Assembly (NCBI GenBank): GCA_964384195.1 | Contig: CAYLKG010000002.1 | Location: 2,117 to 66,116, forward strand | From: an uncultured Aliarcobacter sp. | Lineage (GTDB): Bacteria; Campylobacterota; Campylobacteria; Campylobacterales; Arcobacteraceae | Reading direction: 5' to 3' | Length of the DNA stretch: 64,000 nt | Part shown: in pieces, positions 25,630-29,695 of the stretch | Layout of the letters: every line of letters starts with the position of its first letter | How positions within the stretch are numbered: the first letter of the stretch is position 1 | Program-made: the position numbers and the translations under genes | Notes under the pieces: generated by a model | Databases searched by the model: none | Seen by the model: the letters and a program-made list of their open reading frames with translations, nothing else | Told to the model about the DNA's origin: nothing

Positions 25630-25860
25630 ATGGATATCATAAATAGAATAAAACCATTGGTTGAAGAGTTGGCTTTTAAAAAGCTTGAAAATGATGAACC
25701 ACTTTATACATCAAATCTAATTGATAGTATGGGTACAGTTGATTTAGCTATTATGCTAGAAGAAGAGTTTAATATCAAAATTGATACAAGAGATATAATT
25801 GTAAGCAACTTTGATAGTATTGAAAAGTTAGCAAATTATATAAAAAGTAGAATTGGGTGA
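25630..25860 (+). CDS. dltC: D-alanyl carrier protein DltC
   Basis: LIDSMGTV phosphopantetheine Ser motif, EEFNIKI; first gene of dlt cluster. Confidence 0.88.
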   Translation: MDIINRIKPLVEELAFKKLENDEPLYTSNLIDSMGTVDLAIMLEEEFNIKIDTRDIIVSNFDSIEKLANYIKSRIG

Positions 25861-26972
25861 AAAGGTTATTTTTAAACCTTTTTGCTTTTGTGTCTGCTCT
25901 TGCTTTTGTATTAATAATTTTTTATTTTAATAAAAATAATATTTTTGACTACTACTTTAATTCTTTAGAATCTTTAAAAAAAACTCATAGTCTTAAAAAT
26001 GATTTAGAAAGTGGGAAAATTGTTGTTTTTGGTTCTTCAGAGCTGGACTACAAAAATCAAAAATTTACACCTCTAAACTTTTTTTCTAATTTACAAATTC
26101 CACTTAGAGTTCAAGGTAATGAAGGACATCAAGAATTTGCTACTTTGTCACAACTAGCAGCATTTGATAATAAAAAAGTTCAAGAAAATGCAAGAGTTGT
26201 AATACTTTTGTCACCAGGTTGGTTTACAGGAAGTAACAATGGTACAAAAATTCCAAAATTTTTGGAATATATGTATGTTGGAATGATGGATAGGCTTTAT
26301 TTTTCAAGCTCTATAAATGATAATATTAAACTACAAATCAATAACTATGTACAAAAAAATCTAAGTCTTATTAAAGAACCAAGTTATATTTATACAGATA
26401 ATCTATTGGAATATCAAAAAGACATCATCAATAAATTTCTTAAGAAATCAATTATTAATTATCTTGATTCAAAATATGAAACTAATGAAAAGTTTGAATA
26501 TAAAAATATAAATATCGATTTTGAGGCTCTTAAAATTGAAGCAAAAAAATATGAGCTTCCATCAACAAATAATAATTTTGGTATAAATAATGATTTTTAC
26601 TCAAGAGTTATTGCACCAAATATTAATAAAGATTTTTTCCCTTTTTCTATTGAAATGCCAAAAACTTTAGAAGAAAATGAAGAATTTTCACATTTTTTAA
26701 TTCTACTTGAAACTTTAAAAAATTATAAAATAAAACCACTTTTTATAATGCAAGATTTACATCCTTATGTTTATGCAAGAAATAGAGGGCAAATGGAAGA
26801 TTTAATAAAAATAATCGAGCAAAAATTACAAAGTTATAACTATGAGTTTTATAATATGTGGACTTATGATAAAAATAATTATGAATTAGAAAGTCTGCGT
26901 GATATGGCACATTTGGGTGAAACTGGTTGGCTAAAAGTCAATCAAAGAATCATTGAACATTTTAGTAAATAA
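25857..26972 (+). CDS. dltD: D-alanyl transferase DltD (SGNH-like)
   Basis: N-terminal TM anchor, FGSSE (Ser), LSPGWF, DMAHLG (DxxH). Confidence 0.88.
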   Translation: MKRLFLNLFAFVSALAFVLIIFYFNKNNIFDYYFNSLESLKKTHSLKNDLESGKIVVFGSSELDYKNQKFTPLNFFSNLQIPLRVQGNEGHQEFATLSQLAAFDNKKVQENARVVILLSPGWFTGSNNGTKIPKFLEYMYVGMMDRLYFSSSINDNIKLQINNYVQKNLSLIKEPSYIYTDNLLEYQKDIINKFLKKSIINYLDSKYETNEKFEYKNINIDFEALKIEAKKYELPSTNNNFGINNDFYSRVIAPNINKDFFPFSIEMPKTLEENEEFSHFLILLETLKNYKIKPLFIMQDLHPYVYARNRGQMEDLIKIIEQKLQSYNYEFYNMWTYDKNNYELESLRDMAHLGETGWLKVNQRIIEHFSK

Positions 26973-26982
26973 GGAAGTCTTT

Positions 26983-27123
26983 TTGAAATATTTTTTGAAA
27001 TATTTTTTTGTATATCTACTGCTAATTATTGGTTTTGCTTTTATTTTAATGGAAAAAAATATAAGTGACTTAAATGGAAAAGATACAGATTCTGAAGTAG
27101 AATTTGTTTATGAGGAGTTTTAA
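26983..27123 (+). CDS. dltX: DltX-like acyl-shuttle peptide (46 aa, absent from ORF track)
   Basis: TTG behind AAGGAAG; MKYFLKYFFVYLLLIIGFAFILMEKNISDLNGKDTDSEVEFVYEEF; stop overlaps dltB start (TAATG); C-terminal FxYxxF. Confidence 0.85.
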   Translation: MKYFLKYFFVYLLLIIGFAFILMEKNISDLNGKDTDSEVEFVYEEF

Positions 27124-28262
27124 TGGAAGATATTTTTCCATTCTCTGGAATTGGGTTTTTTTTAATCTGCTTTGCTTTTATTCTTTTTTTACATATATTC
27201 AAAAATGTATTAAAAAAAATAATTTCATACAAAATGGTTGTTTTTATAGGTGTTGTAGTATATATATACTTTGCAATTCCAGAGAGTCATGAACTTTTTT
27301 TAATACTACTTTACACATATATTATTTATTGGTTATTTGTCACAAATAAGTTTCAAGAGACTTTTTTTGCGATGATAGTTATAGCATTTCCTATGATTAT
27401 TCACAAGATAGATATGGCAAATCCTATGTTCAAAATAATAGGTATTTCTTACATTACATTTAGAACAATTCAAGCAATAGTTGATAGTCAAAATTATGGA
27501 AAATTATCTTTCTTTGAGTTTACATCATTTTTATTATTTCCTACAACTTTACTTGCTGGTCCAATTGATAGGTCATATAGATTTCAAGAAGATTTACAAA
27601 AAGGATATGAAAATCTTAATTTCTCAAACTTATTAAAAGGATGGGAAATATTAATTGTTGGAGTTTTATTTAAATTTGTTTTTGCTGAATTAGTCGCTAT
27701 GTTTTGGTTAGGAAAAATTGATGAAAATAGTACACTTTTTATGGATATGGTAAATAGTGCTTACTCTTATACGGTTTATCTATTTTTTGATTTTGCTGGT
27801 TATAGTGCTATGGCTGTTGGACTTAGTATCATGATGGGTATTTTTATTCCTACGAACTTTAATCACCCTTATTTAGCACCTAATCCTCAGGATTTTTGGA
27901 GAAGATTCCATATTACTTTGGGAAGTTGGTTAAATGATTACTTCTTTAAACCTCTTTATAAATATCTTCATAATTTTTCATTTTTAAAAGGTAGAAAATT
28001 ACTTATCCAAAATATTGCAATTACCTCTACATTTTTACTTATGGGTATGTGGAATGGTTTGACATGGTATTTTATTTTTAGTGGATTTTTATTTGGTATT
28101 TATTCAAGTATCCATAACTCTTATGTTTTATACATAAAAAAAGGTGGGTTTGACTATTTTTCAATATTTCCTCCAATTTTAAGCATAAACATTAAAAGAT
28201 TTTTAATGTTAAATGGTGCAGTTTTTGCTTTATATTTTTTTAGTGGGAGAGTTCCTTTATGA
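27123..28262 (+). CDS. dltB: MBOAT D-alanyl transferase DltB
   Basis: GISYITFR, GPIDRS, FDFAGYS, NFNHPY, DFWRRFHITLGSW; WNG at usual WHG. Confidence 0.9.
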   Translation: MEDIFPFSGIGFFLICFAFILFLHIFKNVLKKIISYKMVVFIGVVVYIYFAIPESHELFLILLYTYIIYWLFVTNKFQETFFAMIVIAFPMIIHKIDMANPMFKIIGISYITFRTIQAIVDSQNYGKLSFFEFTSFLLFPTTLLAGPIDRSYRFQEDLQKGYENLNFSNLLKGWEILIVGVLFKFVFAELVAMFWLGKIDENSTLFMDMVNSAYSYTVYLFFDFAGYSAMAVGLSIMMGIFIPTNFNHPYLAPNPQDFWRRFHITLGSWLNDYFFKPLYKYLHNFSFLKGRKLLIQNIAITSTFLLMGMWNGLTWYFIFSGFLFGIYSSIHNSYVLYIKKGGFDYFSIFPPILSINIKRFLMLNGAVFALYFFSGRVPL

Positions 28263-29695
28263 GATTTGATTTAAAATTAATGGATTTTGTTGAGTGTGAA
28301 AAAGATTTCGATAAATTAGCAGTTTGCGGAAGTAATAAAGATTTAACTTGGAATGAATTAAAAAAAGAAGTTGAGTTTTTAAAAGAGAAATTTTCAAAAT
28401 ATAATCTTCCAAAAGGTCATCCAGTTGTTATTTATGGACATAAAGAATCAGATTTTATTGTAAGTATGGTTGCTTGCATGAGTTTGGGATATCCATATAT
28501 TCCTATTGATACAATATATCCAAAATCAAGAGTTGAAAAAATTGTTAATATTGTAAAATCTTCTTTGACAATTAATATAATTGAAAATAATATCAGTTTT
28601 AATGAAACTAATATTTCTACAACATACTATCTTGATGACCCAATAGTTTATATAATTTTTACATCAGGAAGTACGGGTGAGCCAAAAGGTGTTCAAATAA
28701 CTCAAAACTCTATTTTAGATTTTGATAAATGGTTAAGTCATGATTTTGGATTTTCAAATAAAACTGTATTTATGAACCAAGCTCCTTTTAGTTTTGATTT
28801 GTCTGTTTATGAAGTTGTTGGATTTTTAAGCCTAGGGGCAACTATTGTTTTAAATAGCAAGGAGATTATTGAAAATCATATAGAATATTTTGAAAGATTG
28901 AAAAAATACTCTTGTGATGCGTGGATTTCAACACCATCGTTTATAAGTAAGCTTTTACTTTCAGATTTATTTACACAAAATAATCTAAAAGATTTGAAAA
29001 CTTTCCTATTTTGTGGAGAGGTTTTACCTGCAAACACTGTAAAAAGAATAAAAAATAGTTTTCCTTCTTCGATAGTTTTAAATACTTACGGCCCAACTGA
29101 AGCAACTGTTGCTACAACTTTGGTTGAAATTACTTCTGAGATTATAGAAAAGTATTCAAAAAGTCTTCCTGTGGGGTATGTGAAAGAGGGGACTGTTATA
29201 AACTTATTAAATATTGATGAACAAAATATAGGTGAAATGGAAATTATTGGAGACAATGTATCTATTGGATATTTTAAAAATGATGAACTAGATAGTCAAA
29301 AATTTGAGAAAAAATACGAAAAGAGAAGTTTTAGAACTGGAGATTTTGGATATTTTGAAGATGGATTACTATTTTTTGCAAACAGAAAAGATGAACTAAT
29401 AAAACTTCATGGATACAGAATAGAATTGGGTGAAATTGATAAAGAGATTTTATCTAATATAAATATTGTAGATTCAATAACAATTCCATTAAAAAGAGGA
29501 GGGGAGGTAGCAAAACTAATCTCTTTTGTTATCTCTAAAAGTAAAGTTGATATAGAAGAACTAAAAAATAGTATTTCTACAAATCTTCCTTACTACATGG
29601 TACCTTCTGATATTGTAGCAATTGATAGTTTTCCTTATAATGCAAACCACAAGATTGATAAAAATGAATTAATGAATATTTATAAGAATTTATAG
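28259..29695 (+). CDS. dltA: D-alanine--D-alanyl carrier protein ligase DltA
   Basis: FTSGSTGEPKGV, NQAPFSFDLS, FLFCGE, NTYGPTEATVA, GYRIELGEI, KID. Confidence 0.92.
   Translation: MRFDLKLMDFVECEKDFDKLAVCGSNKDLTWNELKKEVEFLKEKFSKYNLPKGHPVVIYGHKESDFIVSMVACMSLGYPYIPIDTIYPKSRVEKIVNIVKSSLTINIIENNISFNETNISTTYYLDDPIVYIIFTSGSTGEPKGVQITQNSILDFDKWLSHDFGFSNKTVFMNQAPFSFDLSVYEVVGFLSLGATIVLNSKEIIENHIEYFERLKKYSCDAWISTPSFISKLLLSDLFTQNNLKDLKTFLFCGEVLPANTVKRIKNSFPSSIVLNTYGPTEATVATTLVEITSEIIEKYSKSLPVGYVKEGTVINLLNIDEQNIGEMEIIGDNVSIGYFKNDELDSQKFEKKYEKRSFRTGDFGYFEDGLLFFANRKDELIKLHGYRIELGEIDKEILSNINIVDSITIPLKRGGEVAKLISFVISKSKVDIEELKNSISTNLPYYMVPSDIVAIDSFPYNANHKIDKNELMNIYKNL

Follow-up and report, generated by a model that had tools for sequence, protein, structure and literature searches.

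A five-gene dlt-type operon in an Arcobacter-family genome

We analyzed a 64,000-nucleotide stretch of DNA from an uncultured Aliarcobacter species (contig CAYLKG010000002.1 of assembly GCA_964384195.1), called the window here, in which five tightly packed, head-to-tail open reading frames (ORFs) on the forward strand (25630–29695) encode relatives of the Dlt proteins in the order C-D-X-B-A. The dltC or dra carrier gene (25630–25860) encodes a 76-residue protein whose phosphopantetheine site is Ser33 in IDSMGTVDL, and dltD (25857–26972) a 371-residue protein whose N-terminus anchors it in the membrane and whose SGNH-like transferase domain, on the periplasmic side, carries GSSE (Ser60/61), Asp349, and His352. 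A 46-residue product of dltX (26983–27123; the longest ORF, from 26953, has 56 codons) has one transmembrane helix and an acidic periplasmic tail. It is followed by dltB (27123–28262), which encodes a 379-residue membrane protein of the MBOAT family, and by dltA (28259–29695), which encodes a 478-residue adenylating ligase with the motifs FSFDLSVYEV, FLFCGE, and YGPTEATVATT. The frames overlap by 4 nt at dltC/dltD and at dltB/dltA, and the dltX stop codon overlaps the dltB start (TAATG). The original prediction, a note made from the DNA letters, had described five coupled genes here; the ORFs lie where it placed them, their junctions are as tight as it claimed, and every motif it quoted is present (DSM in the carrier; GSSE and D-M-A-H in DltD; NQAPFSFDLS, FLFCGE, and NTYGPTEATVA in DltA). 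On comparative grounds, the operon is not a new system; it is an uncharacterized member of the Gram-negative dra/dlt clade, of which Bordetella and Dickeya provide known examples. We think it probable that it encodes a Dlt relay of the Bordetella dra type in a Gram-negative host, where it most likely puts D-alanine on a component of the envelope.

By their sequences, the window proteins are clearly of the Dlt kind, with Pfam matches of the four larger ones well beyond chance, yet diverged from the Firmicute reference. In searches with hidden Markov models, which the original prediction had suggested as a check, Dlt models are the best NCBIfam matches of DltA, DltB, and DltD and rank only third for the carrier, and all four proteins score below the equivalog cutoffs. 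DltA matches Pfam AMP-binding at 5.8e-53 and NF003417 at 425.5 bits (cutoff 476), with 412.1 bits on a second DltA model (cutoff 559.85); a generic adenylation-domain model reaches 258 bits, more than 150 bits below the DltA model. Its matches to solved B. cereus DltA (PDB entries 3FCC and 3DHV) have E = 1e-91. The carrier matches Pfam PP-binding at 1.2e-5, and in NCBIfam the DltC model (31 bits, cutoff 68) stands after AmcB and an ornithine-lipid acyl carrier protein. Its top matches among solved structures are nonetheless chains of S. thermophilus DltC (8JF2_F and 6BUG_A, E ~3e-5), with which it has DSMGTV(E/D)L in common, and carrier identity across the Arcobacteraceae is 76–92%.

The substrate pocket of DltA is conserved in its first shell, where Asp197, Leu198, Cys269, and Val301 of the B. 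cereus enzyme are all identical in the window protein. Work by Du and co-workers in 2008 is said to have found that Cys269 of DltA governs the choice of enantiomer, and the original prediction was right that this Cys is kept. In the second shell, Met201 is replaced by Tyr and Val303 by Thr relative to four solved Firmicute DltAs (B. cereus, B. subtilis, and entries 7VHV and 7R27). The same Tyr and Thr, together with the Cys, occur in the B. pertussis homologue, whose pocket motifs (FSFDLSMYEV, FLFCGE, and YGPTEATVATTA) are near-identical to those of the window (FSFDLSVYEV, FLFCGE, and YGPTEATVATTL), and the pocket is invariant across the Arcobacteraceae. From the conserved first-shell residues and the pocket in common with the B. 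pertussis homologue, D-alanine is therefore the best-supported substrate of DltA, by homology.

A relay with the same parts might instead carry another small amino acid, such as glycine, D-serine, or L-alanine. The two second-shell changes add two hydroxyl groups to the side-chain pocket, DltA falls below both of its model cutoffs, and the pocket varies within the clade. However, all four first-shell residues match those of D-alanine-specific DltAs, the DltA model outscores the generic adenylation model by a wide margin, and the substituted Tyr and Thr are also present in B. pertussis, whose locus reportedly incorporates D-alanine. We therefore regard a different cargo for the window enzyme as improbable. 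Elsewhere in the clade the loaded amino acid may not be uniform, because Ile replaces the equivalent of Cys269 in Bacteroidota (FLFIGE; loci L030/L031, 8244–9755) and Pectobacterium (FVFIGE; locus L032, 7116–8549), and Cys is kept in Arcobacter and Bordetella. One further dltA, from an uncultured Aliarcobacter (locus L016, 3274–4884), spans 537 aligned positions against 478 elsewhere, either through an insertion of ~59 residues or through an assembly artefact.

DltB, DltX, and DltD

DltB matches Pfam MBOAT at 9.7e-10 and TIGR04091 at 220.5 bits (cutoff 375), and it aligns with S. thermophilus DltB (6BUG_C) at E = 1.7e-37. Where the latter reads MGFWHGITWYY, the window protein reads MGMWNGLTWYF, and Asn311 aligns at high posterior probability with His336. 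This His has been called an invariant active-site residue of DltB and other MBOATs, lying beside the conserved His289 (PMC11035591). The original prediction had taken all signatures of the operon to be intact; at the catalytic His of the MBOAT fold it was mistaken. His289 is kept as His263 in FWRRFH, and in the same funnel Tyr345 has become Ser320 and His349 has become Phe324. Trp259, Trp310, Asn245, and the FDFAGY block are also conserved.

The Asn is a property of a whole clade. It occupies the His336 position in 16 of 16 Arcobacteraceae and in 32 of the 150 best DltB cluster representatives drawn from 1.84 billion proteins. These 32 include every match down to E = 2.6e-46, beyond which Asn and His types interleave, and all more distant matches have His. 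In a neighbor-joining tree, 99 His-type representatives form one clade without any Asn-type sequence. The corresponding W-N-G is found in 101 of 105 full-length homologues of Pectobacterium DltB and in the DltB of Dickeya, Pectobacterium, Photorhabdus, Bordetella, Achromobacter, and Janthinobacterium, with FWRR(F/W)H retained. Indeed, every Gram-negative DltB that we examined, including those of Arcobacteraceae, Bacteroidota, and Halodesulfovibrio-like bacteria, combines the Asn with Ser for Tyr345 and Phe for His349. Our literature search found no mention of an Asn-for-His change in Gram-negative DltB. A search of the Asn-type clade for a compensating His at another site pointed to position 331, where ~20 of the 32 representatives and all of the named genera have His and ~10 representatives have Tyr, a pattern that is suggestive and not universal.

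Given Asn311, the transfer chemistry at the DltB step is putative. The Asn variant does function in vivo in at least two systems: a D. dadantii dltB mutant, in a genus with Asn-type DltB, is 99% killed by polymyxin (PMC3544676), and the Bordetella dra phenotype agrees. Because Asn sits at the usual catalytic His, the likely general base, activating the Tyr of DltX, is probably His263, with His331 as a second candidate.

It is also conceivable that DltB serves mainly as a conduit or scaffold, with another residue (His263 or the frequent His331) as catalyst, or that D-alanine bypasses the DltX Tyr on its way from the carrier to a lipid or to DltD. The three substitutions in the funnel, the described invariance of His336 in an active site with His289 (PMC11035591), and the fixation of the Asn state throughout the clade all speak for some such change. 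Against it stand the conserved residues around His263 and the Dickeya mutant phenotype, which shows that an Asn-type protein is needed. Moreover, DltX keeps an exact FXYXXF tail under purifying selection, and a conserved, selected tail of this kind would be senseless unless the Tyr shuttle were used. We judge a DltB step of this altered kind unlikely, and retain transfer through the DltX Tyr as the preferred reading.

The small ORF between dltD and dltB is, on sequence and conservation, a genuine dltX. Its product ends in ...EVEFVYEEF followed by the stop codon, and FVYEEF fits FXYXXF, the acyl-shuttle motif whose Tyr takes D-alanine from DltB and hands it to DltD (PMC12148441). The likeliest start is the TTG at 26983, because it is preceded at five bases by AAGGAAG and because the resulting 46 residues match the size of the A. 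butzleri and A. acticola gene calls. All 16 related loci contain dltX with a hydrophobic helix and the ending ...TVEFVYE(A/E)F, its stop overlapping the dltB ATG, and its ratio of nonsynonymous to synonymous substitution rates (dN/dS) is 0.05–0.09. DltX has no match in Pfam or NCBIfam, and in none of the eight metagenome contigs of the same species did gene callers pick it up. In DltX and DltD, basic N-terminal residues precede a hydrophobic helix; by the positive-inside rule, the active parts of both proteins would lie on the periplasmic side.

DltD matches Pfam DltD at 4.9e-46, TIGR04092 at 95.3 bits (cutoff 150), and the solved DltD 6O93 at 4.6e-7. The columns of its catalytic Ser, Asp, and His (GSSE, Asp349, and His352) are invariant in our alignment A1 and align with the motifs of 6O93. 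Gln133, which belongs to the catalytic environment of L. plantarum DltD (SPQW), corresponds to Gly in the window and to Ser in other Arcobacter, a change that fits a different acceptor. We did not use a structure prediction as evidence; with alignment A1 as input, AlphaFold2 gave a DltD model of mean pLDDT 63.5. A Foldseek search of this model against the PDB gave no match at E ≤ 0.001, and its top weak matches were GDSL/SGNH acylhydrolases.

Among Arcobacteraceae, DltD is the fastest-evolving component, with a mean pairwise identity of 65% versus 79–84% for the other three large proteins. The window DltD is 49–55% identical to every other Arcobacteraceae DltD, which are 59–96% identical among themselves. 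Nucleotide identity dips specifically over ~25900–26900, in dltD, whereas for the neighboring DltB the nearest relative stands at 90% identity. Either replacement from an unsampled lineage or faster evolution would account for the diverged dltD, whose catalytic residues are intact; it may reflect a change of acceptor in the window lineage. As a tentative proposal, held at well short of even odds, the Gram-negative dra/dlt clade would run a D-alanyl relay through an MBOAT with a re-wired active site, using His263 or His331 as base, and, separately, the diverged DltD of the window may mark a new acceptor.

A variant of the Asn-type locus occurs on metagenome contig SRR26541461_1261 (4653–8140), with two tandem DltD paralogues, a 45-residue DltX ending FIYGEL, and DltB. 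The second of these DltDs has TSSD instead of GSSE, and the contig has no ligase or carrier gene within 7 kb.

Conservation, genomic context, and proposed relay

All 18 Arcobacteraceae loci that we compared (16 at species level and those of A. butzleri and A. acticola) keep the order C-D-X-B-A. Purifying selection acts on all five genes, with dN/dS of 0.02–0.15 in two unsaturated pairs of related Arcobacteraceae genomes, and all five frames are intact in the window and in eight independent metagenome contigs of the same species. The window DltB is 90% identical to that of an Aliarcobacter metagenome-assembled genome (MAG), 83–84% to that of A. cryaerophilus, and 81% to that of A. butzleri; judged by its genes other than dltD, the window falls in the Aliarcobacter group of the Arcobacteraceae. 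The exact DltD protein occurs in many metagenome assemblies (98 blocks of the indexed collection), and in the closest named genome in the collections DltD is no more than ~55% identical. Our single scan of the genome collection used Arcobacter-type DltD patterns and says nothing about absence from Campylobacter, Helicobacter, or Sulfurimonas. A contig labeled as a "Candidatus Paceibacteria bacterium" MAG (JBGSBO010000010.1) also has an Arcobacter-type operon, with 73–76% identity in DltA, DltB, and DltC, and is probably a mis-binned Arcobacteraceae contig.

The original prediction knew of no description of the operon in Arcobacter. Our literature search likewise found no paper on dlt in this genus; the genes themselves, however, are already Dlt-annotated in dozens of public genomes, with records in A. 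butzleri, A. cryaerophilus, A. lanthieri, A. acticola, and A. venerupis. For dozens of A. butzleri and A. cryaerophilus strains, the annotation pipeline PGAP gives homologues the name "D-alanyl-lipoteichoic acid biosynthesis protein DltD" or "D-alanyl transfer protein." For A. acticola the submitters chose "D-alanyl carrier protein:peptidoglycan D-alanyltransferase," and for A. venerupis "peptidoglycan:teichoic acid D-alanyltransferase."

The operon could in principle be a horizontally acquired remnant, silent or decaying and without a current role. Its nearest relatives are scattered over unrelated diderm phyla (Halodesulfovibrio, Bacteroidota, Alcaligenaceae, and Enterobacterales), one copy in the clade lies between insertion sequence (IS) elements on a conjugative plasmid, genomic context varies among Arcobacter species, the DltD of the window lineage is strongly diverged, and A. 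butzleri is polymyxin-susceptible in disc tests. Yet the five frames are intact here and in the eight contigs of the same species, selection extends even to the 46 codons of dltX, at least 18 Arcobacteraceae loci, and dozens of A. butzleri strains as well, keep the order and the catalytic residues, and the diverged DltD retains its catalytic Ser, Asp, and His. On the dN/dS values, we rejected a pseudogene or relic and consider a functionless remnant very improbable; a working relay remains the reading that we prefer.

The operon is flanked by a gamma-carbonic-anhydrase-like gene and argG. The A. butzleri cassette has the same neighbors, and that of A. acticola is located elsewhere. We rejected genomic context as a clue to the acceptor, since neither flanking gene has a link to the envelope and A. 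acticola has other neighbors. Upstream of dltC, a candidate −10 box (TATATAAT, 25596–25603, forward strand), read from the sequence, lies 5′ of a ribosome binding site, AGGAAAG (25619–25625, forward strand). Between the convergent dltA and argG, a hairpin of no assigned strand (GCAGAT-TAA-ATCTGC, 29702–29716) is a possible terminator, which a terminator scan did not report. A promoter scan found 33 promoters against 31.3 expected in shuffled sequence of this AT-rich DNA, and promoter and terminator are thus candidates only, because scan counts are no higher than in shuffled, AT-rich DNA. Rfam and tRNA scans of the window gave no match, and so point to no known riboswitch or leader upstream of dltC.

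Farther from the operon, an EAL-domain (cyclic-di-GMP phosphodiesterase) gene on the reverse strand (22879–23942) is split into ORFs of 131 and 176 codons and adjoins a PTS-EIIC-like gene (23881–24858). The split comes from a 1-nt deletion near 23567 relative to an intact 344-residue version in another metagenome contig (L002), and other contigs of the same species are differently truncated; the gene is either decaying or variable. At 34624–35676, after ribBA, lies a tyrosine recombinase/integrase gene (XerC/XerD-like, below equivalog cutoffs), and two contigs of the same species have a phage-type integrase at the ribBA-adjacent position on the opposite strand. A variable region may have its edge here.

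Genes for LptB (341.5 bits, cutoff 240) and BamA (571.8 bits, cutoff 297) elsewhere in the window show that the host is a diderm, presumably without a teichoic-acid-like polymer. With these two proteins, the Pfam and NCBIfam matches, and the conservation of DltX, the original prediction of a complete cassette, DltX included, in a host with an outer membrane is borne out. In the relay that we propose, whose order of transfer is taken from Firmicute biochemistry, DltA would adenylate D-alanine in the cytoplasm and load it as a thioester on the phosphopantetheine arm of carrier Ser33. DltB would then pass the D-alanyl group through its tunnel onto the Tyr of the DltX FVYEEF tail, on the periplasmic side of the inner membrane. 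DltX would hand the group to the catalytic Ser of membrane-anchored DltD, which would esterify it onto the acceptor at the periplasmic face of the inner membrane. As the expected outcome, the envelope would be less negative and the cell somewhat tolerant of cationic peptides.

The original prediction had envisaged an envelope glycan as acceptor. An acceptor other than teichoic acid is a reasonable expectation; a glycan is just one option, and the Bordetella target is described as protease-susceptible. With DltD anchored in the inner membrane, its acceptor has to be accessible from that membrane. We rank the candidates roughly, beginning with an exported protein or lipoprotein destined for the outer membrane, for which that Bordetella description is a precedent. 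Lipid A or the core of the lipooligosaccharide (LOS) before export might come second. A glycerol-phosphate head group (of phosphatidylglycerol, cardiolipin, or a periplasmic glucan) might come third; D-alanyl-phosphatidylglycerol made independently of MprF exists in B. subtilis. Peptidoglycan, hinted at by one submitter's annotation, would be fourth.

Several observations weigh against a dra-type D-alanine relay in the window: Asn311 in DltB and the putative chemistry that goes with it, the sub-cutoff scores of DltA, DltB, DltC, and DltD, the second-shell changes in the DltA pocket, and the loss of the Gln133 equivalent in DltD. In addition, wild-type A. butzleri P8, which may or may not carry the operon, shows zones of 22 mm around discs of colistin and polymyxin B. 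Because P8 is susceptible on discs, any protection from polymyxin would be modest or conditional.

Arcobacter butzleri and related species are emerging pathogens spread by food and water, in which a Dlt/Dra system could plausibly help the cell survive the cationic peptides of its host. The points of most interest are the clade-wide loss of the MBOAT His, the Gram-negative acceptor, and the diverged DltD. What Gram-negative Dlt systems D-alanylate has been an outstanding question since the Bordetella and Dickeya work of 2013–2016, and A. butzleri offers one more model for it because the species is cultivable, transposon mutagenesis has been demonstrated in it, and the operon is compact and self-contained. 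That an Asn-for-His DltB works in vivo in at least two systems bears on the accepted MBOAT mechanism. If the re-wired MBOAT and the change of acceptor proved true, Arcobacter would be a tractable model for a His-less MBOAT and for Dlt targets without teichoic acid.

Relation to known Dlt, Dra, and related systems

The original prediction had called the operon teichoic-acid-type. Its order, as in B. pertussis, and its DltA pocket place it instead in the Gram-negative dra/dlt clade, and the Gram-negative precedents cited there from Dickeya and Bordetella are relatives of the window operon. The Asn-type clade includes Bacteroidales/Bacteroidia, Pectobacterium, Kosakonia, Dickeya, Photorhabdus, Buttiauxella, Janthinobacterium, Achromobacter, Candidimonas, and, within Bordetella, B. 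pertussis, B. bronchiseptica, B. avium, and B. holmesii. Halodesulfovibrio is the nearest relative outside the Arcobacteraceae, at 60% identity. Both the window and the loci of this clade have a DltD-DltX-DltB-DltA core with the carrier gene at one end. The gene order does differ from dltXABCD, as had been pointed out; it is not odd, however, but normal for the clade, because the B. pertussis locus and a Bacteroidota locus, whose DltX ends FVYQQF, are also arranged C-D-X-B-A.

Compared with the Firmicute dltXABCD systems, the window has the same five protein types, the same predicted relay, the first-shell pocket for D-alanine, and DSMGTV in the carrier. Its DltX likewise ends in FXYXXF, and its DltD likewise combines an anchor with an SGNH-like Ser-Asp-His domain, although below the TIGR04092 cutoff. 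It differs in gene order (X-A-B-C-D in a B. cereus plasmid example), in having Asn311 in place of the otherwise invariant His336 of DltB, with Tyr345 and His349 also changed, in scores that all lie below the equivalog cutoffs, and in a host with an outer membrane.

In the AlmEFG system of Vibrio cholerae, a DltA-like ligase and a carrier feed glycine to the lipid A of a Gram-negative envelope, and AlmG is an LpxL-type lipid A acyltransferase on the cytoplasmic side. We rejected membership in this group, as the operon has no AlmG-like gene and its final enzymes are of the MBOAT and DltD families; the trio of MBOAT, microprotein, and SGNH protein is predicted to act on the periplasmic side. PatA/PatB and other MBOAT-SGNH O-acetylation pairs follow the same logic, with an MBOAT that acylates the Tyr of an FXYXXF tail before an SGNH transferase acts, but there the MBOAT itself bears the tail and acetyl-CoA is the donor (PMC12148441). 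We rejected this assignment too, because the motif of the window lies on a separate 46-residue protein, its DltB ends in ...FFSGRVPL, and a carrier and a ligase are present.

The Dickeya and Pectobacterium systems share the D-X-B-A core with the window; their DltX ends FEYQKF, and their DltB has W-N-G and FWRRFH. In Pectobacterium, however, the carrier gene stands at the 3′ end (D-X-B-A-C) rather than at the 5′ end, DltA has Ile (FVFIGE) where the window has Cys, DltD reads GASE, and DltB is 31% identical. The D. dadantii dltB mutant is sensitive to a cationic peptide; a D. dadantii dltD mutant is reportedly no less resistant than the wild type.

A complete cassette of the Gram-negative type, arranged D-X-B-A-C with a 40-residue DltX and an Asn-type MBOAT, also occurs on Enterobacter cloacae plasmid pGX1Z-1L (NZ_CP071862.1, 140188–144240). 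This conjugative IncFIB/IncHI1A plasmid came from a swine source, and the cassette is flanked by IS1, IS903B, and IS26; a Klebsiella electrica plasmid (NZ_CP041250.1) is listed alongside it for the same type of cassette. Lying between IS copies on a conjugative plasmid, the cassette is mobile, which matters for surveillance because it can move between bacteria.

The closest comparison is with Bordetella dra, which reportedly incorporates D-alanine and whose target is described as a component of the outer membrane that is susceptible to protease (Taneja et al. 2013, J Bacteriol 195:5102). That acceptor is not transferable to the window, because it is still described there only as protease-susceptible. 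The two systems differ in host (Betaproteobacteria versus Campylobacterota) and in evidence, as function was tested in Bordetella and the window is known from its genes, and identity between them is only 40% for DltA, 39% for DltB, 32% for the carrier, 29% for DltX, and 27% for DltD. Nevertheless, the B. pertussis locus has the same order of genes, encoding a carrier (79 residues), DltD (391 residues), a 41-residue protein ending VEFQYQQF, an MBOAT protein (375 residues), and an AMP-binding protein (487 residues). It also matches the window in the W-N-G of its MBOAT, in the GSSE and DxxH of its DltD, in a near-identical DltA pocket, and in a diderm host without teichoic acid.

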